A stretch of 32,638 nt of DNA, taken from NCBI GenBank assembly GCA_000442015.1, contig KE560857.1, positions 1-32,638 on the forward strand, in the 5' to 3' direction. A program made the translations under genes and the position numbers. Under the pieces are notes generated by a model, which searched no databases, had not been told where the DNA came from, and saw only the letters and a list, made by a program, of their open reading frames with translations. The first letter of the stretch is position 1; every line of letters begins with the position of its first letter. The DNA comes from Rozella allomycis CSF55. Its lineage: Eukaryota. This document shows, in pieces, positions 1 through 29,838 of the stretch.

Positions 1-725
1 CACGCATCGACAAATGCGTCAGGTATCGACAGTTCTCCAAGCACTTAATCAATTTGATTTTATTAACTATATTCTCAATATTTAATATTGTTACAATCAA
101 GATTCAGATGCCTCAAGTATTTATATTCAGTAAAATCTATTTCAGTTATCTTGTTATATGAAAAATCTGAATGTAATAAGTTTCTATATCCTTTAAACTT
201 TTGTAGACCATCAGAGTCTATTGAATTCTGACTGACATCCAAATAAACAAGNACACTTAATCAATTTAATTTTATTAACTTTATCCTGAATATTTGATAT
301 TTTTACAATCAAGATTCAGATGCTTCAAGTATTTATATTCAGTAAAATCTATATCAGTTAGCTTGTTATATGAAAAATCTGAATGTAGTAGGTTTCTACA
401 TCCTTTAAACTTCTGTAGACCATCAGAGTCTATTGAATTCTGACTGACATCCAAATAAACAAGTTGATCTAGTTGGTTGAGTGGGGTCAAGTCATGTATC
501 ATTCGCTTTCCATTTCTTACCGTTAATGCAATTTCTTTGCAGTTCCACTTTTTGCAAGTATTCGGATGTTATTATCAAGCTGAGATCTCCAATCCCTTTA
601 TTCTATCCTTGAATCCCAAAGTTTAACAATACCGTTGCTGTCAAGCAGGTGTATATTAATTTGTTCTCTACGGGACAAAATTTTAAAGTGTGTAGATAGT
701 TGAATTGCTCATTACATTCAGGCAT
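1..725 (-). CDS. Leucine-rich-repeat protein, LRGUK/LRRC23-like (5' part; runs off the window start and crosses an assembly N at 252)
   Basis: Spliced translation MPECNEQFNYLHTLKFCPVENKLIYTCLTAT|NKGIGDLSLIITSEYLQKVELQRNCIN|DLTPLNQLDQLVYLDVSQNSI...HSDFSYNKLTDIDF...LKHLNLD|FNKIKLIKCLENCRYLTHLSMR gives 22-aa SDS22-type LRRs. The resemblance to the flagellar LRGUK N-terminus is from memory. Confidence 0.7.
42..463. repeat. 210-bp direct duplication (42-251 and 254-463) flanking an N at 252
   Basis: Manual alignment shows 13 substitutions and no indels; 5 of them fall in the 28-nt intron (67-94 vs 279-306). Confidence 0.95.
493..520 (-). other. Predicted non-canonical GT-TG intron (28 nt) in the LRR gene
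   Basis: gtaagaaatggaaagcgaatgatacatg. Removal gives AAC G|AC TTG (N-D-L-T-P-L) and an exact 22-aa LRR period. Confidence 0.7.
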
Positions 726-827
726 TAGATACGTAAACAAATATGAATTTGAATTTTTTGTACCAATTATTTACAATAAAATTTTCAAGATCTTCGAGAT
801 AAGTACCCCTGTATTCTGTAAGGTTTG

Positions 828-3060
828 ATGAAGTTTGCTGCATGTACATTAAATCAATGGGCTCTAGATTTCGAAGGAAATTATCAAAGGATTTATGAGA
901 GCATTGCAATTTCTAAACAGCAAGGGGCGCATTATCGTCTGGGGCCTGAGCTTGAAATTTGCGGATACTCATGTCAAGATCATTTTTACGAACCAGGTAA
1001 GTACTTTGTTTGAATTATACTAACTGATACATGGATACATAGCTGGGAAATTATGTCTAGACTCTTAGAAGATCGATCTTTAGATGGGATCATAATCGAT
1101 GTAGGAATGTAAATAATTCGTTTGATTCAAATAGGCCCGTGCAATGGAAATCACAATTGTATAATTGCAGGGTCATAATATTTAATGGAATAGTATATCT
1201 TATTCGGCCCAAAATACTTTTAGCAAATAAGGGAAATTATAGAGAAGAAAGATGGTTTACACCCTGGCCGGCAAAGGAAATTGAAGAATTTTGTTTGCCA
1301 GCAATAATTAAGCAAAAAAGATGCGTGTTTGGAGATGCAGTACTCGAAACAGAAGATGGAATAGTCATTGGATCTGAAATTTGTGAAGAACTTTTTCAAC
1401 CTAATAGTAGTCACATTGACATGGGTATTGGCGGGGTTGATATTTTTACAAATGCCAGTTCAAGTCATCACGAGTTGAGAAAGTTGCAAACAAGAATAAA
1501 CTTGATCACCAATGCTACAGAAAAAATGGGAGGAGCCTATGTTTATGCGAATCAAAGAGGTTGTGACGGGGACAGACTTTACTTTGATGGTTGCTCGATG
1601 ATCGCGTTGAATGGTCTAGTTGTGGCCCAAGGCAAACAATTTTCTTTGGATGAAATTGAAGGTTTGATTTTTTTATGGTTTTTATCAGTTATTGTGGCTT
1701 CTATCAATGTTAATGACGTCAGGGCATTCAGGGTATCAAAAGGACTTAAAACTGGGGCAACAAAAATTCCTCGTGTGCATATTCCCTTTTTTCCAAATGA
1801 AGATGAAGATTTTTCTTCAAAGCCTATCTCTGTTACGTATTTTTCCATGGAAGAGGAAATAATGCTTGGCCCCGCGTGTTGGCTATGGGATTTTCTAAGG
1901 AGAAGTCCTTGCAGTGGTTATTTTCTCCCCTTAAGTGGTGGTCTTGATAGTACTGCAGTAGCATTGATTGTTCATTCCATGTGCTGTTTAGTCTACGAAT
2001 CATGTGCCAGGGGCAATAATGCTACCTTACAGGACTATTTTCGATTGATAGGAGAAGTGGCAATTCCAACTTCCGCAAATAATATTTCAAAGTATTTTAT
2101 TATGTATAAATTGTTAGAATGCTTTTGGCGACTGCCTACATGGGCACTTGCAACTCCACTGCAGCCACTAAACAACGGGCCGGGTTATTGGCAAAGGAAA
2201 TTAATAGCTACCATTTTTCATTTACATTTGATCCAATAATAACTGCTGTGCTTCAATTGTTTCATTCAATAACGGGATTCACGCCAAGCTTTACTTCGTC
2301 TCATTTGGAAGATTTGGCGCTACAAAATTTACAAGTAAAACTGATCTCGGCGTATATATATATGGCTCGATGTCGATTGATTTTATCATACTTCTTTGCT
2401 CTCCTAATGCCAATCATTAGCTATCAAACAGCTAGGCGCCCCTTTCTTGTCCTTGGGACTTCTAATGTTGACGAAGCGTAAACAAATATGCTTTGGCTAT
2501 TATAGTATACGCGGTTATTTTACAAAGTATGACTGCTCCAGTGCAGATATTAATCCCATAGGAAGTATTAGTAAAAATGATCTCAAAAAGTTCGTCGAAT
2601 ATTATAGTAATAAAAATAATACGATATCATTAAACGAGTAAGCCCATTTTTTGCACCATATAGAATTCTTTCTTCTCCGCCAAGCGCGGAACTAAGACCA
2701 GGGGGTGAACAAATTGATGAAGTAAAAAAACTACTTGAATGGAGAAAGGATGATATGGGATTTACATATAACGAGTTATCTGAAATGGGTTATCTGCGTA
2801 AGGTCGGAAAATGTGGACCTGTCACCATGTTCCAAAAATTGAAGGCCCAATGGGGAAATATCATGAGCCAAAATCAAATTGGAAACAAAGTGATGTCTTT
2901 TTTCCGTTTCTTCGGTTTGAATCGTCATAAGATGACGACTTTGACACCCTCATATCATTGCGAAGCATACAATGTGGATGACAATCGCTTTGACTTGAGG
3001 CCTTTTCTTTATCCAAGCTTTAAATTACAATTTGATACAATTAAGAAGAAAATAAATTAG
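828..3060 (+). CDS. QNS1: Glutamine-dependent NAD+ synthetase (nitrilase-type glutaminase + synthetase), 8 introns
   Basis: Motifs [77 protein letters not shown]. Introns at 997-1026, 1109-1134, 1662-1688, 2092-2117, 2335-2364, 2478-2505, 2638-2663, 2722-2748. Confidence 0.96.
997..1026 (+). other. Predicted non-canonical GT-TG intron (30 nt) in QNS1
   Basis: gtaagtactttgtttgaattatactaactg contains an in-frame stop and a TACTAAC. Removal restores [14 protein letters not shown]. The next AG (1042) is out of frame. Confidence 0.85.
2335..2364 (+). other. Predicted non-canonical GT-TG intron (30 nt, in frame, no stop) in QNS1
   Basis: gtaaaactgatctcggcgtatatatatatg. Removal restores the conserved LALQNLQ|ARCR; there is no AG nearby. 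Confidence 0.8.
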
Positions 3061-3102
3061 TTTTAATGATATTTTTTATTTAATTTATACATGCTATATA
3101 AA

Positions 3103-3783
3103 TTACTGCCTTCCACGAAAGCCACCTCTTCCACCGCGAAATCCACCTCGGCTATTACGATCACCACCACGCGATTGAAAGTTTCCACGACCACCACGGC
3201 TATTGCCTCTTCCACCTCTTCCACCGCGGCCTCTTGGCGCGCCACCAGACGCTTTCTTCACCTTTTGTTTGGGCTTCTCTTCTTTTGGCAAAAATCTCTC
3301 TAAAGGCAAAAGCTTTTCGGTTCCTATATATACCGGTGCATCCTGCTGAAATGATGTTGCGACGATGCCTTCCGAGACTTTAATGGTAAAATACTACAAA
3401 AAATACGGTAAAAGTTTTTACCACTTCATTAATTGGCCCGAGTATTTCATTAATGTGTCCGATTTTGGTTTTGTTTTCAAGATATATTCCAGCATTAAAA
3501 TGGGGAATTTTTTCGTTTGTAGATTTGCAAACCATTTCATTTTCACTTGCATGCATAAAGGTACCAAGCACTATATTTGATCGAAGAATAAAAATTTTAC
3601 CAGTCAATTCTTGAGGAATTTCATCACGCCCACCATAACTTGGGCGTCCGCCTCTGTTTCCACCTCTTCCACCTCTGGATCCACCGCGATTACCTACTGT
3701 TAGTATTTTCTTTTAAAAGATAAAAAATGACAATAAATAAAATCTCAAATAACAAACAAGCGCGTACCAAAATTTCCTCGCAT
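3103..3783 (-). CDS. GAR1: H/ACA snoRNP subunit Gar1, 3 introns
   Basis: RGG-rich ends around the core [51 protein letters not shown]...[10 protein letters not shown]. First intron 3694-3767 (74 nt). Confidence 0.95.
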
Positions 3784-4043
3784 TTTTTTGATTTACCAGG
3801 GTTCCAATTCTCATTAGCTATTCGAGTTTAAAGGGATGGTTTATTGATCAAATTAATCACAAAACCTATATAATTGGTATGTCTCAAATAAATCCTATAT
3901 TATTATGATGCTTGTGATACAAGCACTGAAGACGACACATTATTGTTTTAATTTCATAATTTGTTGCCTTTTTTATAAATTTTATGTTTTTTATTTTCAT
4001 GTGTAATATATTTCGGCTAAACCTTGTTTAACTACGCCATAAA

Positions 4044-5917
4044 ATGTACAACAACTTTCGTCCGCCTATGCCAGTAACGCCTAATTTTCCATGTAAAAAA
4101 TTTATAAAAGATAAATAGATACACCTACAGCAACACCTTTAACTAATATACCTACATTTTCCAATACAGAGGGAATAGAAGAAGAAACTATTCTTGGTGA
4201 ACGTTTTACCACTATTTTTGTAGGCTCTTTACATGAGTCAGTTCCAGATGATGTCATATTTCGAGTGTTACAAGTAGGGAAATCTATTTATACAATACAG
4301 GCGTGTGGTCCAGTAAAAAAATGGAATAGGGTAAAAGATCCAACAGGGACCCCCAAAGCATTCGGATTTTGTGAATATTTATCTGCTGACGGTGTTTTGA
4401 GATGTCTTAGATTACTAGAAACATTAAAATTCTATGACAAACAAATCATGGTAATACGAGGTTGTATACATGTGACTAGTTGAGAGTTGATGAGAAGAGT
4501 AAAAACTACTTGGAGAGGTACAAGGAATGGAAGACTAGACAAGGAGAGCCGATCCAGGATGAAGAAAAGGATAATGACTCTCTTAAGAGTATACGTAACA
4601 TTCTAAAGAATCATTCATTATCGTTTTCTTTTACACTAAAAGAAGACAAAGCGCAAGCTCTGCTGAATGAAATTTCAGAAGCTGCCGCACAGTCTGATTC
4701 ACCAAAAGAACCGTTAAACGAGTAAGGTTTACTTAATCCTTTCATTAGTCACGTAAAGGAGGAAGATCAAAAGGAAGGTCATGATGATCAACACAGAAAA
4801 AAACGAGAAAGAGACTTCATTGATGTAAATACGAAATTTCCTAATTGATTTTAGAGGCTTAGACGCTGGGAATCTAAGGAATCTGGCATCTTAAGAGGTA
4901 TTGAAAGGGATGAAGAACGTGAAATGCAAAGAAAAGATCGCTTAATAAAAAAGAGGGAAGAAGATTTAAAATATTTTTCTTATTTCGATGACGACAAGGA
5001 TGACGCCGAATTTTACCGGGACCGTAGTCGCTGGGTCTCTAAAAGAAAACGTGATCTTGTTAGAGAGAGCGAATACGACATGGAGGATCGTCGCCTGGAA
5101 CAGGAAGAACTTAGGCGCCAAAGTCAGGTCCCAGAGCAATCAAATGAGTTGAATTCTGCTGAAATTTCCCCAATGGAAACTGATGAAGTTTCAAATATCC
5201 CACAAGAAGAGCCTGAGCCTTTAAATGAACTAAATGAACCAAACCCTGAAATTTCAAACCCCGTAATAGGTGCAATCAAAGTAGGTTTTGGTTTGACGTC
5301 AAAGCAATCTTCTTCAGAGTCGATGGCATCTAAAAAAAGGTCTCGACCAACTGCAGTTGAAGCTTTTGGGGATGTTGAGTCTGATGAAGAAATTGAACAA
5401 AAGGTTGTCGAAACGTTTATCCCAATTCATAAACGGTTAAGATTGATGCCTATTGAATATTCCGTCGATGAATTAATGGCCGATGGTTATTCAAAGTCTG
5501 AGGCTGAAAAAAAGGTACTAGAAAATGAAAAACACAGGGCGCAACGATTAGTGCAGGAAATTCCGGTCGACAAGATTGATTTATTTAAATATCAAATATC
5601 ATGGGATGTTTTGGACAAGGTTTGATTTTTTTTGTTTGTTTTATCTTTTAGAATTTAATTTCATTGAAAGTTAAACCCTGGCTTAACAAAAAAATTAATG
5701 AATTGTTTGGCTCTTCAAACGAGCAATTTGAGAGCATCATAATTAAGTCTCTTTTAAATAAAGAAAATCCAGACATTCTCATAAAAGAAATTTCAAATGT
5801 AATTATTTGTTATTTGAAATATAGGAAATTGAATTCTCCAATGCAGAGCTCTTTGTAGTTCGATTATGGAGATTCATAATTTTTGAAACTGAATATAAAT
5901 TACTTGGCAAAAAATAA
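4044..5917 (+). CDS. RBM25/Snu71-like U1-associated splicing factor (RRM + charged region + PWI), 7 introns
   Basis: RRM CGPVKKWNRVKDPTGTPKAFGFCEY; RE-rich middle; PWI domain VKPWLNKKINELFG...AELFVVRLWRFIIFETE. Confidence 0.88.
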
Positions 5918-6022
5918 AAATAAATCATTTAATTGTAATTCTTGATCTGCTTTTTTGATCATCACAGCGTGAAAAATCTCAAATTTCCGACACGTGAATT
6001 CAAATCACAACAACAATTAGAA

Positions 6023-6769
6023 ATGCCAGTAGTTCGCACTAAACCTGTATCACCAATTCGTAATCCTCCCACAAATATACCATTAATACTTTTACAATCA
6101 GTCTTTAATGTGTATCGAATATTCTCCTCAAAATTTAAGACCTTGAAGACACACACCAAGATTCTAGCGTTGTTTGTAGCATTTTTAAATACTTGGTGGA
6201 TAACGCTTTTGCTAATTCCAATGACTCTTTCGCTAGCAACATTAATTCTCGTGTTCACAGGCTTTATTAGTGGATGGACAATTTTGGTTAATCAAATCGC
6301 CATTTCTTTGGAACAAGTTTTCGGCCTTTCATTTAATGTATGGTATTCTAAGGTTTTGTAATTAGAATGGTTATTTACAAAGACTGTACGAAGGAACGCT
6401 TCAAACCGCAATTAAGATTGACGCATTAATCAATCTCTATACAAATATGTTTTTTAAGGTATTAAATTAAAGTAATTTATATCTAGAATATTTATCTTCC
6501 ATGGATCAAGCCAATATTGATGTTGGCTATTCGCAACAAGGCATTATTAGCGCCAGTATATACGCTATCCAAGATCGCCATCAATTTTACCTGTTATCTT
6601 GGTTCCTATTTAGAATCTGCAGGGAATATAATTTCTCCAACATGGACAATATACATTAAACGGGTAAATTAATTTTCATGGGGTTAGATAGATTTTCGAT
6701 CAAATTCTATACAAGTTTCAAGTTTATTATGAAAAATGTGAAAACAGCTTTGATTTGCTATTAAAATAA
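6023..6769 (+). CDS. Hypothetical membrane protein with a long hydrophobic stretch, 3 predicted introns
   Basis: The ORF from ATG 6023 is extended in frame by three 27-28 nt GT-AG introns to TAA 6769. About 40 hydrophobic residues, ILALFVAFLNTWWITLLLIPMTLSLATLILVFTGFISGWTILV. Confidence 0.6.
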
Positions 6770-6800
6770 TAAAAACATAATGTTAAAGTACCAAATACAT

Positions 6801-9127
6801 TTATTCCTCTCCAGTATCCATTTCCAAATCGACAGTTTCATTTCCGGAGCTTTCAGGGGCTTCGAAAGCTTCATTTAGTAAATTTTCGGATGAATGGGAA
6901 TAAGGACCTTGTAAAACTTCATCAGGGAATGGGGTGTCTAACCAACCTTTTCCATTCATCTTGAATTCTCCAACTTTTTCATAGTATTTATCAAATTTTG
7001 TAAGGCCATTGTCCAAAAGTCTTTTTCCTGCTCTGTAGTATTTAGTTTCCGGTTTATTATAAACCATTGCGTTATTGCACATTAATACAAAGTCATCCTA
7101 TATTAACAACAAACTAAAGATACCTTAAATTCATTCAATGATCGGTAAAATAGAATTTTATGCTTCATTGTATCCAAGTCCATTGGATTTTTTATGATCA
7201 AATGGTAATCAGGAGCAATGTCGGGTGTAACGGGCTCTGCAAATATCCCTTTCGCGTCAAGTCTCAAAAACTTAGAGAAACAAAGTTACTTTTTAAGCTC
7301 ATTCCATAAATCCTCCATTAATATATTCAAAGGAGAAAAGAAATGTTTATATAAATTGTAAAGACAAATTACAGACTGTAATTTTGCTTTTTCCCGTTTT
7401 TTCACTAATTCAACCAACATTCTAGCTTTCTCCAAGTCAGTTCTCAATGACCGCAAAATCTTAAAATCTTTCTTGTACTGTTCAATGTCCATAGCAGTGG
7501 CTTTTGGCGCCTTGACAGAAGTAGGCTAACGTCTCATACTAACATATTAGTTACTTCAAGTTGAAGTCGTCTTAACAATGGTACTCCTTTACGAGATTCA
7601 CGCTTTAGCGTCCAGTAACGGCATATGCTTTTAATCACATGCAATTTCTGTGAAACATTACAATCTTTTGTATGAGAATTAAACAAATTGTGAAGAATAC
7701 AGTTTGGAATAACAGGAAAAATACCTCCAGAGGATTTCAATATAACATTTGCTATAGTTGAATTTACAAACCACTCATTGCTTTCGAAAACAGACTGAAA
7801 TGGTACACCCCGGTCAGCTAATCGATGGCTGTCCTTATAGATGACCATTTGCTTTTTTAATATGGGAACCTTTTCATCAAGTAGTCCCTCTTCCCAATCT
7901 TTTTCATCAATATTCAAATCGTCCAAATACTCTTCCTTTTCTTATAAATTTACAATCGACATTACAGGGGTGTGTTTAAAACAAAAAGATTGCTTAGATT
8001 CCCAATCCATGCATAAGCCTGCCAGTTTCGCACATGTAGGATGATATGAAATTCGACAATTACGCTGGGAACATTGAATCGGCGCACCCCATTTCTTTTT
8101 ACATAGTACACATATCAACTTGTATCGAGCCTTTGGTATAGCAGAATTATCAATGGGCTCCTGGAAAACGGCATTTCCTACACAACATTCCTCAATCCAA
8201 TATGAACAAAAGAGGTGAGCCCATCTGTAATCAACCGTTTGTTTAAATGCTCCACCTTCGTTAGGGCATAATATGCAAGACTTTCTATATTTATTTTAAA
8301 TGTTACAACTGGGATTGATGGGTTAACCATACATTTTCTACACAGCCACGACCCCTCTGGAATATGTGGAACGCCATAGCATTCCTGATGCACTGCTACA
8401 TTGCAACCATCACAGTAAACTATAGCGTCACTATTAGAACTTTCACTGCTCCCACAAATTTCACATGGTTTATCCTCATGGATTCCATCCTCAAGCTTTG
8501 CTGTTCGTTTAACTAATTTAGTCTTTCTGTGTAAGAATAAGTAATTACTAATTCAAACCACTCCTTCTCTATACGATCCATAACAAGCTCGAAAAATTCG
8601 GGACTCACCTCCTCTAGCATTTCCTTTTGCCTGTCTTCGTTTATTAACTTCAGCCATTGATTATCTTGATCATCCATGTCATATTCAATTAAAGTCGCTG
8701 CACTCTCTTCTAAATCAGCTTTTAATAGAAAAACCTTTTGGTTACGTTGATATTGAATGTAGGATTCTGGTCTTTGATAATTTCGTTGGTGGCAATCAAC
8801 TTTGACGTTACCGACATGTTTGTAACGCAAAGTAGGCAGCTTTGACAAAATTTCTTGGGCTTTGCTTTGCCTTTCCCGGTCCTTCTCCAGAGACTCTAAA
8901 CTCTTCTTTTTAAAAACTATTTTTAATTTTGTGTTCACATCTAGGACATTTTTTCCATAAACCTCGTCTATTGTCTTTTCTTCCCTAGGCCGAGGGTCAG
9001 CATCTGTCGTTCCGTGTGGTTTGGACACGGAATTCAAGGAAGGATATTTCCTAGGTCGTCCTCTACCCCGTTTTAAAGGGATTTGATTAGTGGAAGTGCT
9101 GGACTCTGTTTTCATATCGTCGTCCAT
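6801..9127 (-). CDS. BRPF/Nto1-like HAT-complex scaffold (AT-hook, EPC/EPL1, PHD-zinc knuckle-PHD, bromodomain), 7 introns
   Basis: [72 protein letters not shown]; bromodomain IFAEPV..APDY...[15 protein letters not shown]. The start codon is uncertain. Confidence 0.9.
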
Positions 9128-9277
9128 TACTACCTATAAATTACGAAATTTTGGCATGACATTGTTTCCTGATCGGTTAATAAAATAGATATAAATTTAA
9201 ATCTTAAAATGATCATCTTAATCATTGGCTTGTATTTTATTATGTGAAAGAAGTGAGTGAATGAACCTAGCCACATT

Positions 9278-11701
9278 ATGGAAGAAAATTTCGTGAAGCA
9301 TACGATATCTCTAGTTAAGCAGAGCAACCAGCTTTACACTAAACATGTTGATTTACCGTTTCATTTAGCTACTTCACCTGCAATAGGAGAACGTTTGGAG
9401 AAATCTGCTCAAAAAATACTTTCCATTGGCCGAAAATTAATAGCCTTAGAGTCTCAATTTTTGGACCTACCAGAATATTTAAATGTTGAGAATGTTGAAC
9501 ACGTTGTTGATTCCTATGACAGAGTTATTGAAGTTACCGACCATATTCTTGAGAGAATTGTAAATGTAGTATATTTTAGTCACATAGGATGCCACGATTG
9601 AAGTTGAGAAAATTAAAGCTAGTGGGAAGGACATGACGCCTGTAAATGCCAAGCAATCATCTGCTGTGTCTATAAGTGTTCAAAATGGAAACAAATCCAC
9701 AAAGTTTATTCACGCACAAAATATTTCAAGGCCACAATTGCGTTTCAAAGATCAAATCGACAACTCTATGACTCCATTCATACCAAAGTTAAAGAACAAA
9801 CCGCACGCTCTCGTTCCTCTTCCAAACTGTAATGCTACTGTTTTATTTATTATATAGATTCTAACAATGAAAACGTTTCGGCCGAAATACCTGACCATTT
9901 ACAATCTCACATTCAATCCCTAGGGGTGGGAAACGGTTTTGTCAAACAACATGGCCATCCTTACGAGTATGAAATAAGAAATTTAAATTTACCTGAACAC
10001 GCGATCCAAGAGTGTGTTCCAGAAATATACAAATCTCTGGAAGAGACGCCACTTCTAATGGTCAATACTGAAGAGCAGTTGTTAGCGTTAATTAAGGATT
10101 TGGAGGGAGAAAGCGTTATTGCAATAGATTTAGAGAATCATAGCTATAGATCTTACCAGGGATTCGTTTGTCTGATGCAAATTTCTTCGCGCCAAAAGGA
10201 TTTTATCGTTGACACCCTTGAGCTACGCCACTTTCTTCATCAATTGAATGTTGTTTTTGCTAATCCAAACATAGTTAAAGTATTACACGGTGCTGATTCT
10301 GATATTATTTGGCTTCAAAGAGATTTTGGACTTTATATAGTTAACATGTTTGACACGTACTTTGCATCCAAGGAATTGAGTTGTCCATCGCATTCCTTGG
10401 CGTATCTTTTGAGCCATTATGCTGGTATTAAGGTGGATAAAAAGTACCAACTAGCAGACTGGCGTATTCGCCCACTACCTGAGGAAATGGTAAAATACGC
10501 CCGCGAAGACACTCACTACCTTTTATACATTTATGATAATATGAAAAATGAGTTGATTGAAAAGCGAAAGTCTGAGACTGAATACGATCCACTCCACAAG
10601 GTTCTATCTAAAAGCAATGATTTGACTCTGAAGCGATATGAAAAAGAAATTTATTCAGATGTTTCTTGGTTCAATTTATATAAAAAATACAATAGAAATC
10701 TAGAGCCACGCCTACTGAAAGTGTTCCAGGCTCTGCATCGTTGGCGTGACCAACTTGCTAGAGAGCAAGATGAAAGCACCCATTATGTTTTACCTAATCA
10801 TATGCTATTTAGAATAGCAGAAAGAGCTCCTAAAAACGTACCACAAATTCTTGGCTGTTGTAATCCAGTTCCACCATTGGTGCGCCTGCACGCAAATGAT
10901 TTATCACTATTAATTTCGCGTGTATTAGATGAATATGAAACTAAGAAAAATGATCAAATCGAGCAATTTCAAAACCTTGAAACAATGGCAGAAAGCAATC
11001 ACACCATTTTTGAGTCGAACTCCGAAATTTCTGAAACAGAAGTGGCTGAGCAGGTCATTGACGAGGAAAATCTGAAAGAGAGAATTGAAGATGTCGCTAA
11101 TGTACAACAAGTTGTTAAAAATGAAGCTGGCGGAGATTCTAATTCTAAAGTTAAAATGTTGAATTCATCAGTGAAATCCCAGTTCCTTGCAGTCCTGGAG
11201 AAGATTGAAGTACCAATTTCATTACCTAACGAAATAATGGATTCATTTAAGAATGTTTTAGAACCTTGGAACGAATTTATGGATGAGATTGCTGATGACG
11301 ATAACAATTTTACAGCGCAGCCACCCAAAGAAGAGGCGGTTCCCGTAAAGGAAGAAATTCCCGTTGATTCTGTGGTGACTTTGAATGATTTAAAAAAGGG
11401 CACTTCCTCAAAGTCTTTGGATTCTATTCTAAGCGAATTTGCAAAGAAACAAGCCGCTGTTGTGGACCAAGACATCGAGGAGGAATCACCTGCTCAAGAA
11501 GATAAAGTCGACTATTCAATTCTTAAACAAAATTTGGACACTGGAAATAAATCAAAAAAGAGAAAAAGTAAAAAATATTTCTATTTTTAATTAGTTTTTA
11601 ATCCATTCAAGGAAAAGTCCGAAGTTGCATTCAAACAAAAGAAACGCCTTTCCACCAAGCCAAACTCTGGGAACAAAAGTTTCACTTTCAAAAATAAATA
11701 A
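9278..11701 (+). CDS. RRP6: Nuclear exosome exonuclease Rrp6/EXOSC10 (PMC2NT, DEDD exonuclease, HRDC), 3 introns
   Basis: IAIDLENHSYRSYQGFVCLMQISSR, HGADSDIIWLQRDFG, YQLADWRIRPLPEEM..YAREDTHYLLYIYD, WRDQLAREQDES..YVLPN. Confidence 0.96.
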
Positions 11702-11728
11702 TCAATGTTATGATATTTCATTGTTTAC

Positions 11729-12310
11729 ATGTCTATTATACGTTCAATATTAACTTTTTGTGCATTTTTATGTCTAGTTGCTTGCAATTCTAATGGTGCT
11801 CCTGTATGTTCAGTAAATCAAGCCACCATGAGCTCTGGAATGGGCGGGTCAAATACAGCCCTTGGATTCGTATTATCAGCGGACAACTCGACTTACAAAG
11901 CATCTGGAACGATCACATTGACTTTGGATGGGCCATCAACATACATTGGGATATTACTTTGGTCATCTTCAAGTTTTGGCAACATTGGAACTTTTACAAT
12001 CCCGGATCAAGAGCACAAGAATCCCACTTGCGATAAGTCGAGCGGGGTCTTAACACACACCTCAAATGATCCAAAAACAGTTCCAATCAGTTTCTCATGG
12101 AAAGCGCCAAATGGAAATGCAGGGGATATTACATTTAAAGCAGCCGTCGTTGGACAAACAAGAACTTCTTGGCAATTATTGGATGATGTGGTTGTTAAAG
12201 GTACTGCAAGCGACCCCAAGTATGGTCAATCTTCAAGCACAAGTCTTTTGTGCAACTTGCATTTGATTATGGTATTATCCTTGTTAATTACGCTGTACAT
12301 TAGTCTGTAA
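11729..12310 (+). CDS. Secreted Reeler-domain protein, probably GPI-anchored, intronless
   Basis: N-terminal signal peptide; NGAP-C, GTF, LTHTS..PK, SWKAP..GDITFKAAVV Reeler pattern; Ser-rich linker followed by a hydrophobic C-terminus. Confidence 0.8.
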   Translation: MSIIRSILTFCAFLCLVACNSNGAPVCSVNQATMSSGMGGSNTALGFVLSADNSTYKASGTITLTLDGPSTYIGILLWSSSSFGNIGTFTIPDQEHKNPTCDKSSGVLTHTSNDPKTVPISFSWKAPNGNAGDITFKAAVVGQTRTSWQLLDDVVVKGTASDPKYGQSSSTSLLCNLHLIMVLSLLITLYISL

Positions 12311-12451
12311 AACTAGAACGCAAAAATTATAAATAAAAATAGTGCTTTACAGACAGTAGGTTTTATCATAAGAAACAAGAGTGAATGATTAAATCACATT
12401 TTCAATCGCCTTAAAGATGCTATCGTGGCTGAGTCATCCAAACAAAGCTAA

Positions 12452-13489
12452 ATGGAAAATATGGGTTTTACAACTTCTCCCTCCCTTTTCACACCTGCAG
12501 CAACCCAGAACGATGGATTTGTTCCTATTACAGATCCGAAAACAGTACCCGCTTTTCTTAACAAACTGTACAAGTAAGTGAAAATTATTTGCTGTATTTT
12601 AGCATGGTCAGTGATTCTTCATCAAGTCATCTAATAAGATGGAGCGACAGCGGAAATTCTTTTATTGGTATTTAATTTTTCTCTCTTAATATTAGTTACC
12701 AAGCCAGATGACTTTTCAAGAGAGGTTTTGCCCCGATTTTTTAAACATGGAAATTTTACCAGTTTTGTCCGACAATTAAATATGTACGGCTTTCACAAAG
12801 TCCCTCATTTGCAACAAGGGGTTTTGATAGCTGGAGACAACACTCCTGATTATTGGGAGTTTGCCAATGATCTATTTAAAAAGAACAAGCCAGAATTGCT
12901 TTGTTTCTTGAAGCGGAAAACTGGAAAAGAAAGCTCCGACGAAAAAGAAAGCATGGATGTTAAAATGCTATTGAATGAATTGTCAACTATAAAGCAACAA
13001 CAGCTGAATATTACCGAAGAATTAAAGAATCTGCAAAGAGACAATCAACTTTTATGGTCAGAATCAATTGCTGCAAGGGAAAGACATATGAAGCAAGAAG
13101 AAATGATCAATAAAATTGTTAGATTTCTTGGGCAAATGTTTGCCAACGACAGGTCGTCTTCTATTCTTCCAAAGAGCAAGAAGAGACACTTAATGATCCA
13201 AGCTAATGATTTATTAAACACAAATAAAAATATTCCTCAGTCGTCATCCGATAAAGTGATGGAATTGCCAGAGGATAAAATTTCTAATATGGATTTCAAA
13301 ATTTCTCAAACTAAAAATGACATTCAGGGAATCAATGAAGATATTGACATTTTGGAAACTAATTTGCAAGATTTGACTGATTCTCTTGGTCTTAATGAGG
13401 ACTGCAAGTTTGATGAGAACTTTCTCGATGGGTATAATAACTCTGTCTCTGACGACTTTGACATAACCAAATTCATTAACATTAATTAA
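12452..13489 (+). CDS. HSF1: Heat shock transcription factor, 2 introns
   Basis: VPAFLNKLY|NMVSD..LIRWSDSGNSFI|V...VLPRFFKHGNFTSFVRQLNMYGFHKV, followed by an HR-A/B coiled coil. Confidence 0.9.
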
Positions 13490-13533
13490 TAAATAAATTC
13501 CCTTTTCTTTTCAAAATGTTTTAGAGGTTTTCT

Positions 13534-13541
13534 AACCCTTG
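13534..13541 (+). promoter_or_regulatory. Start-proximal AACCCTTG motif (RPN5)
   Basis: The exact 8-mer also precedes the Nup and NOP1 ATGs; 23 nt before ATG 13565. Confidence 0.55.
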
Positions 13542-13564
13542 TTAGGACATCCAATTTACAGAGT

Positions 13565-15119
13565 ATGGGAGACGTTAAAATGGAGCGTGATTTTTCAGTA
13601 GAAACAGATGCTACTATATCTCTTTGTGATAAAAAACTCCTGGTAACATTTTAAAAGCTTGAATATTAGGCTGGAAACCCATCTGAAGCCTTGGAGTCTC
13701 TATTTTCACTTGAAAAGCAAACCAGATTGGTATGATATTTTAAAGTGTATAAAAAATAGGCTGGCGATGCGTTCTCTACAGGAAAATTGCTAGTAAAGAT
13801 AATAACTGTGAACCAGCAACTATCTGATTGGAAAGCTGTTAATGATAATCTTTTACTTCTCTCAAAGAAGCGAGGCCAGTTAAAGCAAGTATTAAGAAAT
13901 GTTAAGCTTAATAGGCTATTACTGTCATGGTTCAAAAAGCTGTTTCAATGGTTGACCAAACCCCAAACATGTCTATCAAATTAGACTTGATCAACACTCT
14001 TCGTTCTGTTACTGAAGGAAAGATTTTCGTAGAGGTTGAGAGAGCTAGATTAACTAAAATGCTTTCTGGACTTAAAGAGCAAGAAGGGAATCTTAAAGAA
14101 GCAACCGAAATTCTTCATGAATTACAAATTGAAACTTTTGGATCAATGGATAAGCGCGAGAAAGTTGATTTTATTCTTGAGCAAATGAGGCTTGGACTCG
14201 CCATTAAAGACTTTGTGAAAACGCAAGTCATTAGCAAGAAAATAAGTTCTAAATTTCTTCAAGAAGATGAAAATGAAGTAACTTTATAATAAATGCGTGA
14301 CTCGAGGATCTCAAGCTTAGATTTTACCACTTGATGATCCAAATTGGTTTGCATGACAATTCATACTTGGATATATGCAAGTATTATCAACAGATTTATC
14401 AATGCAAATCGATCAAGGAAGATTCTATGAAGTATACAGACGTAATGACTAATTTTCAAAATTATAGACACTACGTCATGTGGCGATGTTTGTTGCCTTG
14501 GCGCCATTTTCAAATGAGCAAGTGGATCTTTTGCATCACATTTACCTTGATAAAAATTTAAATAATCTTCCTATTTACAAGTAAAATTGTTATTTTCTAT
14601 TTAATAAAACAGGGAATTGTTGAAATGTTTGTCGACCACAGAGCTACTTCGCTGGGTTGTTGTCCAGGACGCCTTTGCACAAGAAAAGCAAACGCTCGCA
14701 GCATTTTCAGGAGTTGAAGGCCAAAAGAGATGGAATGATTTAAAGGATCGAATTGTAGAGCATGTAAATAAAACTAGTAAGCCCGAGTTAGAATATTCGC
14801 GTGATAAACTCGCATTATGAGTGTATCTCTTTTAAGCGTTTTGTTCAACTTTTAGAGTTGAATGCCGATGTAAGTTTTTAGATTTAATAAAATTCAGGAA
14901 GCTGAAGAAGCTTTCTCCAAAATGGTGGTTGCAAAGACCATCCAGGCTAAAATGGATAGGCCTTTGGGAATAATAAACTTTCGTCTTGCGAGGAAAAAGG
15001 AGGAAGTTTTGAATGAATGGTCCACAAAGGTCAATGACATTTTAACTCTTTTAGTTAAAACTAACCACTTGATTAATAAGGAAGAAATGGTTAACAAAAT
15101 TGTTAAAGCAAATAAATAA
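13565..15119 (+). CDS. RPN5: 26S proteasome lid subunit Rpn5/PSMD12, 8 introns
   Basis: [86 protein letters not shown]. Confidence 0.96.
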
Positions 15120-15134
15120 AATTTGAGCTTTATT

Positions 15135-16362
15135 TCAAAATATCCTTCGTGTTCTTTTTCTGAGCATGTAAGCAACAAAGATGACCGTAAAAAAGAGGAG
15201 GATTCTCTTAATTGTTTTCTGATTGATAAATGACTTTTTCGGATTAGAATTTTTATTAGAAATTGATGATTCTATTGACGAAAGTTTTTTCTGTACACTA
15301 TTCAGGTCTTCACAAACAGCAGATTCAACTTTCACGCGAGAAACTTCTGGACAAAATGGTTCATGTACTTCATTCGTCTCCTTATCGTCATTGGGCCCTT
15401 CATCTGAAATATTGGACATGGCATCAAAATAGAGACTATCTCTTGAACTCGACTCAATCTCTTCATTAATACTTGTATCGCCCAAAGTATAAGGTTCAAT
15501 AAAGCATTCACATGTGTCAAATGAAAATATAAAAGAATCTAAACCACCAAAGCCTGTAGTAAAATATTTGCAAACTAAATTACTAGATAGAATATTTTCT
15601 TTTTCTATGTACAATTCTAATTCATTCTTTTTCACAAAAATAATCTTCTTTTGAAAATTGTCTGGAAGCATTTTCTTCACTAGATTCCAAACGCCATTTA
15701 ATATCCATGGCATGTCAATTATAAAGACTATAAATATACATTTAATAATTAGTCTCACCTTGATTTACATATCCTGGATAGTATTTAAAAGCTATGTCAA
15801 GTAAGATCGGTGCCAAACTAAAGTCCTGTTTAAGACACAAACAGTTATTACCACTTGACTTAAACTAAACCCCTCCAGATTTACTACAACTGTAAAATCC
15901 ATCATCGGTTTGATTGCCACCCGTCCACTTTCCAGAATAAAGTAGAGGTATTTCTTAAACTCATCAAAATTATTTAGATATGATTTTTTAAAGTACTTTA
16001 GATTTACCCATCTTTCTAATTTTATGCATTTACGTACCCTATTGTGCGACCTGTCTTATCCCTGTTTCTATAAAATATCAATGGGTCAGATTTAAATTGA
16101 GCAGGGACATTTTCATTGTTCAGATATGAATCAATTTTATTTTGAATCCGCCATTCTACAATTTCAATTAAAGCCTTTAACGATAGATCAGAGTCATGGG
16201 AGTAAACTTCGAGTATTCTTTTAATATTGTCTCAATTTGAAGGGTTTGGTGTAACTTACTCGAGTCCTTAATATAATCAATTATTGATTTCTCGATATAT
16301 GAATCTAATCTTTTTCCTCCGATGTGTTCTAAAAGTGTTTCTGCTATTCTCTCTTGCAACAT
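15135..16362 (-). CDS. CRAL-TRIO/Sec14-family lipid-binding protein with C-terminal TM anchor, 5 introns
   Basis: EWRIQNKI, RDKTGRTI|GWVNL, VVVNLEGFSLSQV|DF, YYPG, FIIDMPWILNGVWNLVKKML, FGGL; tail RILLFFTVIFVAYMLRKRTRR. Confidence 0.85.
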
Positions 16363-16863
16363 TCCAGAAAAGGTATCCAAGCAAGGCTCTATAAGAAATT
16401 AAGTGCTTGTTTGGAACAAGACGAGCTAAACGAATAAATCAAAATGTCAAATAATTTGAATGTGAAAATTGACACTTAATAGTATTTAACTTAAATCTAA
16501 CATTAATTTGCCAATTGTACTATTTTTTTCTCGCAGTTTTCATGTGTGTTGAATACAAACCAGGTTTTTAAATTGACTTACAGATCTAACAATTAGACTT
16601 TTTGATTTAGAAAATCTCAAGTACTACATGGTATCCAAGGAATTGCTAAAAAAGAGTAAAAAGGAATATGAAACTTTACAAAAGGCATTTCAAGCAGAGA
16701 TAAAAGTATTCAATTTATCTTTTCATTAATTGGATTACTAACCGCATGTAGGCATTTACATTTTAACTAACAAGACTACTTGAAACCTCTAAATTTCGAT
16801 CTTCTGCATCTTATATTGTCTCAAATTTTAGCCTTCTTCTACATATTCAAAAATTACAATTCA

Positions 16864-17809
16864 ATGACTAGCATATCGCCCCAAACCTCAATAACTGCAA
16901 CTGCCGAGAAAGTTGCACTTACTGCCGATTCGGATTCGCAAAACAATATTTTTAAAAATGATATTAAAGACATGGTAGAAGGGATTCTTAAAGTATTTGA
17001 TTCTCCTTTAGATCCAAATGAATGGGAAAGCACTGTTGATAATGATGATATTCAAATTTATCAGAATAAGAGGTCGCAATGCTGCTTCAGAATACACGCT
17101 TCACTCCAAAATTGTGCCGAATCATGTTTTGACCTCCTTTCAGATCCCATGGAAAGGCCTAAATGGGACGAATTGTGTGAATTCGCGCGTGTAGTTGAGG
17201 AGGTAGACAAATTCACCAGAATAGTTTATGTTAGAATGAAACCTGTTTGGCCTACCAGTGCGAGAGACGTAGTTCTTCTTTCTCATGTTACAAAGCTCCC
17301 TGATGGCAGATTACTGAATGTTACAAAGAGCATTACTCACCCAGATTGTCCTGATCTATCGTCTGAAGGAATTGTTAGAATGGAAGCTGGCATAGCCGGT
17401 CAAATATGTATTAAAAGCACTTCTAATAGATGTAAACTAATTCAAATCGCAGACGGTGACTTGGGTGGATGGATCCCTAAAAGTGTGATCAAATTTGGTA
17501 AGCCCAATTTTTGCAAACAAATAAGTCGCTACAAAAGCTCTTCCTAATTCATTCAAGGCTGTTAATAAAATATTATGCAAGATCGAACAAAAGGAAAAAT
17601 CGCACCTTGCTGAAGGAGAAAGCACTGAAGAAGTAGATTTATTGAAAGAGCTTGCCGTCTTAAAATCACGAGTTAATAAATTGGAAGAAATGGTAGAAAG
17701 CCTCACACCATCGGGTATACAACTCTTCATTGGTCATGCTACTCCTATAGTGGCTGGAATTACGGCAATAGCCACTGCGATTAGCATATTCAGGTCTAGG
17801 CGTCAATAA
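16864..17809 (+). CDS. START-domain lipid transfer protein with coiled coil and C-terminal TM anchor, 1 intron
   Basis: RPKWDELC, KPVWPTSARDVV, GIVRMEAG, DLGGWIPKSVIKF|V. The final exon ends TPIVAGITAIATAISIFRSRRQ. Confidence 0.88.
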
Positions 17810-18115
17810 AAGGCGTAAATAAAGAGGTTAATTTACAGCTAAAGCTTTTTTCGCATGCCTTGTTGGCGCCTTTTAATTGTACATTGGTCTACGTTATGAA
17901 AACAAGTCCAAAAAGACGATATGTGTCGGTTAAGTATAAATTATTCAATTTCAATTTAATCAATCATCTATAGAGCCGGATTCACAATGACAATAAATAT
18001 AAAGAACCCAAATTTTCAAATCGTTTGTCCTATTTTATTTCAAAAACCTAACCAATTAATCATACAATAGCTATTTCATTCACACAAGAGAGCATCTAAT
18101 TCAAGAACTACCTGA

Positions 18116-18419
18116 TCATGAATTCATGTCAAGCCATTGAGTATAAGCAAAGCAATCGTTTCTCTCTACAGGATCTTCAATAACAAATTGTATTTCCTTT
18201 TCTGTCGTATTAAAAATGCTAAAACAAATAAGCAATTAAGTAATACAATGAAACAAACGCCAAAATCTTGTACTGGCCAGGCAAACCAGGAAAATAGAAA
18301 ATAACCTTCTGACTCTTGATCCGATTAACAAAATAATACAAAAAATGTGCCAGCCTATTTGGATTAATAACACTAAGTACTTTGTACTTTAAAAAGTTAC
18401 TGTATGTCGAAGCGCTCAT
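18116..18419 (-). CDS. Possible small hypothetical protein; exon structure unresolved
   Basis: ATG 18419 ORF plus a 28-nt GT-AG candidate intron gives an extension IFNTTEKEIQFVIEDPVERNDCFAYTQWLDMNS. No recognised homology. Confidence 0.3.
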
Positions 18420-18539
18420 TTAGACTATGATCAGGAACACAGTGTATTGTAGGAATTATTAAAGTGGCATTATCTTTACTTACTGAATGTATATTTGACC
18501 GTATTTCAACTTTCATCGTTTTCTTAGGGAAATTTCATC

Positions 18540-18915
18540 ATGTCACTCTCAAAAATCGTATACATGTTGTTTGTTCCACTGTGGATATACATTGGTTACC
18601 GCCTTAAAGAAAGTGAAGACTACCTCTTTAATTTTCCAAGTTTGTTTAACCAAGTCCTCTTTAGTCTAAAGCCGGCAAATGCTATCGAGGGATCGTTTTT
18701 CGTAATGATTCATAAGGTGTAGCTTGATAAAGGGTGTATTAGCAGCAACTTTGCTAACCATGGTCTTTAGCTTCGTTGTGCTATCGATTCCGTTCTTCGT
18801 ATTGGCTAAGCAGGAGTCTCAAAGAGTAATTACATACTGAGTAATAAAAAAGCCGTATAGATACACATATAGAACTTCAGCTAGATCCAACCTAGCCAGA
18901 AGAGGAAGCTTTTAA
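18540..18915 (+). CDS. Small hypothetical 2-TM membrane protein, 2 predicted introns
   Basis: The ORF from 18540 joins through 27-28 nt GT-AG introns to LIKGVLAATLLTMVFSFVVLSIPFFVLAK and a final exon ending at TAA 18915. Confidence 0.55.
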
Positions 18916-18926
18916 CAGACAGATGA

Positions 18927-19877
18927 TTATTTTATTAATAAACCAGTTATCATTGTTAAAACAAAAAGATAAATTTGGCTTTGGAATGTAAATAATTGGA
19001 TCAAGGCTGGGCCGGGGCAAATACCGCAAAGTCCCCATCCAAAGCCAAAAATAGAGGAGCCTATGATCAAGTCGGTATCCACGCTGCATTTAGATGGAGT
19101 GGCAAATTCATCTTCCAGTACAGGTTTCTTCATTTTCCTGATTTCTCGTCTGTATGCTACCAAATTAGGAGCAATGGCGCCCAGGATAATCATTAATAGG
19201 TTTGGGTTGAAGAGAGATGGTTCAGAAAATATAGATAGGAAACCTAATACAGATGAAGACTTAACCATTCCCGTAAGACCTAAACCAGTCCCAAATAACA
19301 GACCGGCATAAAACGCAGCAAAGTTTAAGCTTGTAGACATTATCTTTTTAGCCCAAATGACAGAAAATATTAAAAATATGAGTGAAAGGAACAAAGTGGA
19401 ATATTTGAATTGAAAATTGTCGGACCACACGGAATTATTTGGGAATAGATACACGGCAATCATTGCATTTGTAAAGAACATTAGTGTAGCAAATATTGAT
19501 CTAATTGATAGCCTTGAAAGCCCACAAAGCATATGCCCAGAAGTACAACCGCATGCTTTTCTGGCTCCATAACCTACTAAAAATCCACCTAATGCAAATC
19601 TAGGCAAGTTTGCTTGCCCATAGTCATACCTGATAAGTGAACCAAAATAAATATTTTACCACCCTAATAGCGCTGGTGTGAATAGACGTAATAATAAGCC
19701 AGCGGATAATAGCCCTGAAAGAAAGAACAATTTCCATTTTGAATCTCTGGGTTCTAGGATGCATGATTTAATGATTCCAGAAATACCGACAACTTTTCCG
19801 TAGTATTTAAGTAGTAAATAAACCGGCAAACCGAGATAAAAGGCGCCTATTAAAGCAAGAGTAAGGTCATTGATCAT
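18927..19877 (-). CDS. YeeE/YedE-family (TsuA-like) thiosulfate/sulfur-compound transporter, 1 intron
   Basis: GKVVGISGI, GGFLVGYGA..ACGCTSGHMLCGLSRLSIRS, GLLFGTGLGLTGM, GSSIFGFGWGLCGICPGPAL. Confidence 0.9.
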
Positions 19878-19911
19878 TTTGAATTTTGAATTCTGAAATT
19901 CGATTATTTGA

Positions 19912-20151
19912 ATGGAAGGTAGTAGTCCTCAAAAGCAGCATATATTGCTTGCGTTGGAACATATAGCCATGGAAGTGGAGAGTGAGAAATTCGGCTGTGG
20001 TGAAGGGACTGTTGATGATCAAATAAATGAAGAATTTTTGAAATCAACTATTGATTATGAGAGACAAAAGGAGAATACAATGGTGTGGTATGGAAAGGTG
20101 AAGAAATTCCATGAAAATCTGAAAGTTGAGAGTGATCGAGGAGATAGTTGA
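19912..20151 (+). CDS. Hypothetical 79-aa acidic protein
   Basis: Intact ORF filling the gap divergent from YeeE, with AATAAA at the stop codon like neighbouring genes. No recognised family. Confidence 0.45.
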   Translation: MEGSSPQKQHILLALEHIAMEVESEKFGCGEGTVDDQINEEFLKSTIDYERQKENTMVWYGKVKKFHENLKVESDRGDS

Positions 20152-20249
20152 ATAAAATGAATGATTTTTGATTTTAAATTTTTAACTTTGAATATTGATG
20201 TGAATCGTTAGGATTATTGTTTATTTTGAACGAGTTTCGCGCCAAATTA

Positions 20250-20257
20250 AACCCTTG
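20250..20257 (+). promoter_or_regulatory. Start-proximal AACCCTTG motif (nucleoporin)
   Basis: 17 nt before ATG 20275. Confidence 0.55.
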
Positions 20258-20274
20258 TCTTTAGAAAATAGAAT

Positions 20275-25170: not shown

Positions 25171-26199
25171 ATGGGTCGCGGATTCGGTAAAATATGTTTA
25201 ATTTTGATATTTTACGTTTAATTATTTATGTGATTTTTGAAAGAATTGTTCTAATTTTTAGGTGATCGTGGAGGAGGAATGACACGCGGAGGACGTGGCG
25301 GATTTTCAGATCGTGGAGGACGTGGAGGTTCTAGAGGAGGAGGCCGAGGAGGAAGTCGAGGTGGATTTTCTGGTCGCGGTGGAGACAGAGGAGGTCGTGG
25401 TGGAAGTCGCGGTGGCAGTCGTGGAGGAGATAGAGGCGGCCGTGGTCGTGGAGCTCCAAGAGGAAGAGGAAAGGCTGGTTTAGGATCCAAAGTTATTGTT
25501 GAGCCACATAGACATGAAGGAGTGTATGTTGCCCGCGGAAAAGAAGATTTGCTTGTTACAAAGAACTTGGTGCCAGGCGAAAGTGTTTATGGAGAGAAGA
25601 GAATTTCGGTTGACAATGCCGACGGAACTAAAACAGAATATCGCGTGTGGAATCCATTCAGATCTAAATTAGCTGCTGGTATTTTAGGAGGCATTGAAAA
25701 CATCCACATAGCGCCAGGAAAGAAAGTCCTTTACTTGGGTGCTGCTAACGGTACGACAGTTTCACACGTTGCGGATATCGTTGGACCAACTGGTCTTGTG
25801 TACGCAGTAGAATTCTCCCATCGCTCTGGCAGAGATTTAGTCAACATGGCCAAGAAAAGAACAAACGTCATTCCAATTGTCGAAGACGCTCGTCACCCAC
25901 ACAAATATCGAATGCTCATTGGAATGGTTGACGTCATTTTTGCTGATGTGGCTCAACCTGATCAAGGGCGTATCGTCGCCTTGAACGCCCACAACTTTTT
26001 AAAGAACGAAGGGCACGTCGTCATTTCTATTAAAGCTAACTGTATTGATTCAACCGTTGATGCTGCGACTGTTTTCGCCAGCGAAGTTAATAAATTGAAA
26101 GAAGAGAAAATAAAACCAAGAGAACAACTCACCTTGGAGCCTTATGAGCGTGATCATGCTTTGGTTGTCGGTGTCTATCGTGCTGCCCCAAAGAAATAA
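25171..26199 (+). CDS. NOP1: Fibrillarin (C/D snoRNP rRNA 2'-O-methyltransferase), 1 intron 25187-25261
   Basis: GAR domain, then [57 protein letters not shown]. Confidence 0.98.
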
Positions 26200-29765: not shown

Positions 29766-29838
29766 GCCCTGATAGCTCAATCGGTAGAGCGTGCGGCTTT
29801 TAACCGCAAGGTTCGGGGTTCGATCCCCCGTTGGGGCG
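29766..29838 (+). tRNA. tRNA-Lys (anticodon UUU), intronless
   Basis: Acceptor stem GCCCTGA/TTGGGGC, D arm GCTC..GAGC, anticodon arm TGCGG-CTTTTAA-CCGCA, T arm CGGGG-TTCGATC-CCCCG, and a downstream T-run. Confidence 0.97.

Follow-up and report, generated by a model that had tools for sequence, protein, structure and literature searches.

Three candidate introns in a 32,638-nt stretch of Rozella allomycis DNA (strain CSF55, contig KE560857.1, positions 1 to 32,638; 'the window') begin with an ordinary GT donor and appear to end in TG instead of AG: one lies in a small leucine-rich repeat (LRR) gene and two in the gene for a glutamine-dependent NAD(+) synthetase. The AG at the end of an intron is among the most invariant signals of eukaryotic genes. 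The reading that we favour, at a probability of about 0.45, is that TG is still used as the acceptor at these sites, probably inefficiently, in a genome where the 3' end of tiny introns is chosen mainly by its distance from the donor.

Candidate intron 1 runs from 520 to 493 on the minus strand (28 nt, GTAAGA...CATG, phase 1) and belongs to the LRR gene. Candidate intron 2 occupies 997-1026 on the plus strand (30 nt, GTAAGT...TACTAACTG, ending in ACTG, phase 1); it contains an in-frame TGA and a perfect TACTAAC. Candidate intron 3 occupies 2335-2364 on the same strand (30 nt, GTAAAA...TATATG, phase 0) and is a multiple of three in length and free of stops. All three are present where a first-pass annotation of the sequence had placed them, with GTAAG or GTAAA donors and TG ends, and the junctions of candidate introns 2, 3 and 1 read cag/gta...ctg/ata, caa/gta...atg/gct and acg/gta...atg/act, respectively. 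The same annotation had noted that no AG lies 26-32 nt from these donors, and this holds over a wider range: none ends even at 20-45 nt from any of the three, the first AG-ended lengths being 52, 46 and 86 nt for candidate introns 1, 2 and 3, respectively. The donors and the lengths (28, 30 and 30 nt) fit the local class of tiny introns, and removal of each segment restores frame and homology; what the three lack is the closing AG of this class, which elsewhere is the first to end 26 nt or more from the donor. We infer that they are ancestral spliceosomal introns of the standard tiny class in which the A of the terminal AG was replaced by T.

To assess the TG at the level of DNA, we compared the window over 470-20469 with contigs from three read sets (X1, X2 and X4, from three studies), one of which may underlie the assembly. 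At the three -2 positions that had been proposed for checking (494, 1025 and 2363) TG is kept, with no listed difference on any of them. The records over 1025 contain 2, 0 and 7 differing letters in X1, X2 and X4, respectively, and those over 2363 contain 1, 2 and 13, all of which are explained by differences elsewhere. At 494, TG is supported by a full account of the X4 record, which also spans 1025; in X1 and X2 the position is covered and has none of the listed differences, beyond which there are 137 further ones. Word depth of the contigs over the sites is ~230-660. A metatranscriptome run (X9), which has almost no words in common with the window, gave no placement over the same interval and carries no information on expression. 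The TG alleles are not a private error, since they are common to haplotypes that differ at 13/2465 bases here, and not an assembly error, since the contigs of each of the three studies keep them. TG is real DNA, as far as the contigs show. That the three -2 positions reflect an error of sequencing or assembly, or belong to a rare dead haplotype, is therefore highly improbable: the window does have an N at 252, and a 212-nt duplication that looks collapsed adjoins candidate intron 1, but the sites are covered in three runs and the differing letters are accounted for.

The tiny-intron class was defined from gene models built with a dynamic-programming script that combines codon log-odds with intron parameters learned from the window itself, the position weights being derived from 64 modelled introns. 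A reading of TAG as a sense codon was also considered; the gene models all close under the standard code. With three introns in an antisense low-complexity model removed and one (1662-1688) added by homology, the set comprises 62 GT-AG introns. Two more, 603-632 on the minus strand and 26390-26415, were recognised by eye, giving 64 GT-AG introns in total and 67 introns in the window once the three TG candidates are counted; the earlier figure of '3 of about 70' thus becomes 3/67. Sixty of the 62 modelled introns are 26-32 nt long, 18 of them exactly 26 nt and none shorter, and only two are long (74 and 75 nt). Tiny-intron donors are GTA-rich, with weights that favour A at +3 and +4, and a branch-site motif is not recognisable in most of these introns.

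Acceptor choice follows a simple rule: the AG that is used is the first to have its G 26 nt or more from the donor, in 60/60 tiny introns by script and in 2 more by hand. Earlier AGs are passed over, five of them ending at 22 nt, two at 24 nt and one at 25 nt. The 26-nt lower bound is partly inherent in the trained length model, and the observation that no AG is skipped beyond 26 nt is independent of it. By composition an AG is expected about once per 18 positions, so selection is needed for all 60 introns to end at 26-32 nt. Position dominates 3' site choice, and the first-AG-at-26-nt rule is a compact description of that choice, independent of the TG question. The first-pass annotation had proposed a spliceosome that relies on distance and has relaxed recognition of the 3' dinucleotide: the first half of this proposal is supported by 62/62 introns, but the second is not, as the other 64 introns all end in AG. 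AG is strictly recognised among normal introns, and these 64 lend no support to a spliceosome with a general disregard for the -2 base.

Further irregular splice sites were sought in the window in several ways. Allowing 15 other acceptor and 15 other donor dinucleotides, we found no further non-AG acceptor or non-GT donor in the window that a gene needs; the scan returned the 997 site, where any in-frame length fits, and low-scoring joins in a low-complexity gene or across stops. A scan of exons for in-frame, stop-free, intron-like segments gave non-discriminating scores, and candidate intron 3 did not stand out. Between position 26 and the AG used there is 1 TG, as against 6.3 expected from earlier positions and 2.1 when matched for distance from the 3' end, which is no signal for or against TG avoidance in a set of 62 introns that is underpowered for the purpose.

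The NAD synthetase gene (NADSYN1/QNS1 type) extends over 828-3060 on the plus strand and, under the TG model, has 8 exons, 679 residues and a TAG stop. Its canonical GT-AG introns lie at 1109-1134 (26 nt), 1662-1688 (27 nt), 2092-2117 (26 nt), 2478-2505 (28 nt) and 2638-2663 (26 nt). The assignment is based on the domains of the homologs, full-length collinearity, the score against a profile built from 22 homologs (952.5 bits) and a Pfam match: exon 3 is ~60% identical to fungal and animal enzymes, the best homologs carry PF00795 and PF02540, and exon 3 itself matches CN_hydrolase (PF00795) with an E of 1.1e-20. The C-terminal exon pieces 1691-2089, 2110-2478 and 2665-3057 match no Pfam family at E 0.01. 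As had been claimed, removal of candidate introns 2 and 3 restores the QNS1 motifs, the alignment with the 22 homologs being gap-free at both junctions (LALQNLQ/ARCRL at that of candidate intron 3). Exon 1 is joined to the remainder of the gene model only via the non-AG end of the 997 segment, and a model restricted to AG lost this exon.

Could the enzyme be made without the TG acceptors? For the donor at 997 the original description is accurate: the segment has an in-frame TGA, and the next AG (1041-1042) yields a length of 46 nt and is out of frame. The further claim, that the TG acceptor is indispensable for an intact enzyme, is right for this donor but too strong in general, since a GT at 1001 and the same AG delimit an in-frame alternative intron (1001-1042, plus strand, 42 nt, weak donor GTACTT) that would replace DTWIHS with GN. 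From the donor of candidate intron 3 the next AG, at 86 nt, is out of frame; retention of this segment would add ten residues between LALQNLQ and ARCRL, within the conserved QNxQ/AR block.

The gene is also polymorphic close to candidate intron 2. Codons 59-60 (1032-1037, plus strand) read TGG ATA (W I) in the window and in X2, and TAG TTA (stop L) in X1 and X4, where the combination of 1033 G>A and 1035 A>T is the only allele among the contigs, although X1 shows two alleles ~700 nt further on, and so is not simply monomorphic, and contigs can mask minor alleles. The stop stands two codons past the junction of candidate intron 2. In the X1/X4 allele a new AG arises at 1033-1034, 38 nt from 997 and 34 nt from 1001; splicing to it is out of frame from both donors, and the allele therefore appears null under every intron model that obeys the rule. 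The 679-codon frame of the window allele is free of breaking lesions.

The small LRR gene (281-725, minus strand) runs from an ATG at 725 to a TAA at 281-283, has a canonical 30-nt intron at 603-632 in addition to candidate intron 1, and encodes 128 residues under the TG model. With both introns removed the protein consists of regular units of 21-24 residues, and the exon that follows candidate intron 1 (287-490, minus strand) matches Pfam LRR_8 with an E of 5.4e-07. Removal of candidate intron 1 had been said to restore a 22-residue period; a regular repeat is indeed restored (...RNCIN/DLTPLNQLDQ...), but the unit has 23 residues. An alternative GT-AG intron at 469-520 (minus strand, 52 nt) shares the donor of candidate intron 1 and is in frame, with loss of LTPLNQLD (8 residues) and a repeat reduced to 15. 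The gene adjoins the end of the window and of the contig, where a 212-nt tandem repeat (x2.0, 93% match) occupies 38-463, with the N at 252 falling in the copy junction. This repeat duplicates the last LRR units together with a ~30-nt spacer, and at the junction past ...NIKY there is no GT donor in either copy; the second LRR copy may thus be fragmentary or result from a collapse in assembly.

Taken together, the alternative introns define a reading in which canonical or unspliced isoforms are the actual products: candidate intron 1 would be spliced to the AG at 469 (52 nt), candidate intron 2 would be replaced by 1001-1042, and candidate intron 3 would be retained as a ten-residue insert. All three solutions keep the frame, the 1001-1042 intron would enclose the 1033/1035 polymorphism and render it harmless, the AG at 1042 lies 19 nt past TACTAAC, a more usual spacing, and AGs follow the TG of candidate introns 1 and 2 by 24 and 16 nt, as in the human TG/AG tandems described in PMC2374985. 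We nevertheless regard these isoforms as quite unlikely products. Lengths of 42 and 52 nt exceed the 26-32 nt range of the 60 tiny introns, and the GTACTT donor at 1001 would have to compete with a perfect GTAAGT located 4 nt upstream. In the X1/X4 allele, moreover, AG 1033-1034 is the first at least 26 nt from 1001, and out of frame. The isoforms would lose the nearly invariant D-T-x-L-H-S block, cut an LRR short or split QNxQ/AR, and for the NAD synthetase they score 16-21 bits lower than the TG model on the profile (936.5 bits with candidate intron 3 retained and 931.3 bits with the 1001-1042 intron).

A more serious competitor, which we still hold to be somewhat unlikely, is that the acceptors are dead: the AG>TG changes would abolish correct splicing, and both genes would be non-functional or in the course of being lost, damaged too recently for further decay to have accumulated. 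The first-AG rule would splice candidate introns 2 and 3 out of frame (46 and 86 nt), and in human genes AG>TG mutants are described without splicing at the TG (PMC2374985). The three TG sites are confined to two genes, and both of these look weakly constrained. Two of the sites share the NAD synthetase gene and the third belongs to the LRR gene, with its tandem duplication, near the end of the contig; the nonsense TAG at 1032-1034 is the only allele in 2/3 read sets. Loss could follow, for example, if NAD synthesis were dispensable in a parasite. The NAD synthetase sequence itself is unusual: it deviates at 30/252 near-invariant columns, as compared to at most 13/242 in any of the 22 homologs, and with a mean identity to the set of 0.527, versus 0.57-0.65 for the others, it is the most divergent sequence in the alignment, many of its deviations at conserved columns being conservative changes. 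Fibrillarin under the same test is ordinary (0.81 versus 0.76-0.84, and not in the six most deviant sequences), from which it follows that the lineage as a whole is not fast-evolving; selection on NAD synthesis may be relaxed in this organism. The deviations of the NAD synthetase include a G>S in the GYGC motif adjoining the catalytic Glu region. The 14 coding strain differences listed comprise 8 replacements, 1 nonsense change and 5 silent ones, which is indistinguishable from neutrality and too few to tell moderate constraint from none. A metagenome scan with exon 3 detected 25 loci with best segments all at 63% or below, and among these there was no orthologous intron to compare; nearly all align in one or two blocks, and the two loci L022 and L023 break at other places.

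The lesions themselves do not look like random damage. All three are identical, A>T at -2. In the spectrum of X4 differences A<->T accounts for 21/149 changes and the per-base rate is ~1.6x higher at G/C than at A/T, giving a rough estimate that a random hit on the acceptor dinucleotide produces TG about 1 time in 10; at a chance of ~0.1 each, three lesions of the same type are unlikely unless TG is tolerated. Other types of lesion (nonsense, frameshift, donor), which have far larger targets, are absent from the window allele of either gene. This pattern is what selection leaves if TG is the mildest acceptor variant. The changes at conserved columns point to constraint that has been relaxed for a long time, and that the NAD synthetase frame remained open over all 679 codons in the meantime argues for continued translation during it.

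On the reading that TG is still used, we propose that the 3' end of a tiny intron is set mainly by position, the earliest usable site that ends 26 nt or more from the donor being taken, and that a TG which falls in this slot (at 28, 30 and 30 nt) within AG-free surroundings would still serve for exon ligation, probably with reduced efficiency. Acceptors weakened in this way would survive only in genes that tolerate a lower output, such as a fast-evolving NAD synthetase with a segregating null allele and a duplicated LRR gene. The open 679-codon frame of the window allele across six further, correctly phased introns, in a genome of 35% GC, and the Pfam match that its CN-hydrolase exon still gives are consistent with such use; both the ligation at TG and its inefficiency are inferred. 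A stronger version, in which the second step of splicing constitutively accepts TG in the 26-nt-ruler slot and a few per cent of introns genome-wide are GT-TG, some of them in essential genes, seems doubtful to us.

Several observations weigh against continued use of TG. All three TG sites fall among the 10/67 introns of two genes, a grouping made after the fact, and no housekeeping gene in the window has a TG intron. Where TG and AG are both available the model chooses AG: in the minus-strand intron 16231-16259 (…AAATTGAG), the only tiny intron with a TG of this kind, a TG at 27 nt is passed over and the modelled AG at 29 nt is used, so that AG outcompetes TG. Under the TG model the sole X1/X4 allele loses the enzyme to the stop past the junction of candidate intron 2; the NAD synthetase would thus be dispensable at least in X1 and X4, and the argument from selection is weakened accordingly. 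In candidate intron 2, TACTAAC is only 3 nt from the TG, as compared to 6-7 nt to the AG in the long introns, and if this motif is the branch site, a TG at +3 is very close. Human TG acceptors, in the account of PMC2374985, are only alternative, have an AG within 28 nt and are never constitutive, and the AG>TG mutants mentioned above activate neighbouring AGs, not the TG; candidate intron 3 has no AG for 56 nt past its TG. Finally, in yeast a UUG 3' site serves as a splicing-limiting reporter (PMC12707134).

How do these introns compare with known cases of unusual 3' ends? In human U2 introns TG is a working non-AG 3' splice site, verified experimentally in 36 genes according to Szafranski et al. 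2007 (PMC2374985). The TG-AG tandems of that study resemble the candidates in their GT donor, TG end and ordinary U2-type context, and an AG follows within the 28-nt limit of that study in candidate introns 1 (24 nt) and 2 (16 nt), though not in candidate intron 3 (56 nt); they differ in that here TG is predicted to be the productive site, in introns of 28-30 nt. As for frequency, GT-TG makes up 22 of ~92,000 introns (0.024%) in the curated annotation of a basidiomycete (PMC11590231), and a rate of 3/67 would be roughly 190x as high.

The ultra-short introns of ciliates, microsporidia, dicyemids and myxozoans, as summarised in PMC13644364, are likewise dense, below ~30 nt, sharply bounded in minimum length, and weak in or devoid of branch-site and pyrimidine-tract signals, with strong GT...AG ends. 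Microsporidia are the sole fungal example named in that text (2026), whereas the window groups with early-diverging fungi; non-AG acceptors are not among the features that its account reports for ultra-short-intron lineages. Yeast fidelity mutants (Prp8 alpha-finger and second-step alleles, Prp22, Prp18 and Fyv6; PMC12707134) exemplify a route to acceptance of non-YAG sites: second-step alleles of Prp8 improve the use of UUG, and Prp22 mutants permit nonconsensus 3' sites generally. These are laboratory alleles, however, UUG is not rescued by Prp8 Q1594A (PMC12707134), and the genes concerned lie outside the window. Acceptor mutations in decaying or hypomorphic genes share with the present locus the single change of an AG, a segregating nonsense allele and substitutions at conserved positions; unlike them, it has three independent, identical A>T hits in frames that are otherwise intact.

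If the TG sites are used, TG would function on its own, in introns whose length leaves no room for the usual spacing of branch site and acceptor, and position could replace the -2 base in exon ligation. Constitutive use, if true, would make this the first lineage with constitutive TG acceptors and would imply altered proofreading of the 3' site through natural variants (Prp8 alpha-finger, Prp22, Prp18, Slu7). Gene finders that accept only AG would truncate or split such genes. If the sites are instead dead, the locus would represent an early stage in the loss of NAD synthesis. The 26-nt rule, for its part, adds an ultra-short-intron genome beyond the lineages that are usually listed.

Three other explanations for the segments were tried and rejected. 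U12-type introns are marked by the rigid donor motif (A/G)TATCCTT together with a branch site that resembles TCCTTAAC; the donors here are GTAAGA, GTAAGT and GTAAAA, and such a branch motif is absent from all three segments. Internal eliminated sequences of ciliates carry a TA repeat at both ends, one copy of which is retained; the junctions here have no TA shared between their two ends that would permit excision of this kind, and the genome is fungus-like. A nested (twin) intron was rejected too, as no internal GT...AG removal yields a usable site within 997-1042.

The window as a whole has a GC content of 35%, with genes tightly packed on both strands. On protein similarity it is grouped with the early-diverging fungi: its fibrillarin shares 85-90% of residues with the proteins of chytrid, zoopagalean, entomophthoralean and mucoralean fungi, as compared to 78-80% with the animal ones, and the protein searches with fibrillarin, the NAD synthetase and the small LRR gene returned nothing near-identical. 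Short introns are in keeping with published figures: median intron length among eight early-diverging fungi is 29-197 bp by species, with one species at 29 bp (PMC8042348), and putative introns of ~30 nt are described in an S23 gene of Rozella allomycis (PMC6349667).

The two long introns, 3694-3767 (minus strand) and 25187-25261 (plus strand), each come first in their gene, the former in the GAR1-like gene and the latter in the fibrillarin gene; the products of both genes are snoRNP proteins rich in RGG. TACTAAC and TTCTAAT stand only 6-7 nt before the AG of these introns, which look like a separate class whose branch site is of the conventional kind. Outside the count of 67, modelled exons contain four GT...AG segments (27-30 nt) that are in frame and free of stops, possibly read through by the models: 4274-4300 and 27470-27496 on the plus strand, and 8719-8745 and 15554-15583 on the minus strand. 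These may be further real introns.

Strain differences are often closely grouped, with 2-5 changes only a few bases apart (575-594, 1033-1035, 1810-1812 with TTT>AGA, and 15831-15845), a pattern that suggests multi-nucleotide mutation events or conversion between alleles. The plus-strand frame at 20275-23243 is a gene for a repetitive low-complexity protein to which no function is assigned: a 30-nt unit is repeated x21.6 (98% match) at 21241-21886 inside its 981-codon open frame, more repeats of 27-84 nt follow at 22334-22701, and the region has a strong GC skew, +0.36 and then -0.31. A tRNA-Lys(UUU) at 29766-29838 (plus strand) is the sole Rfam or ARAGORN match in the window.

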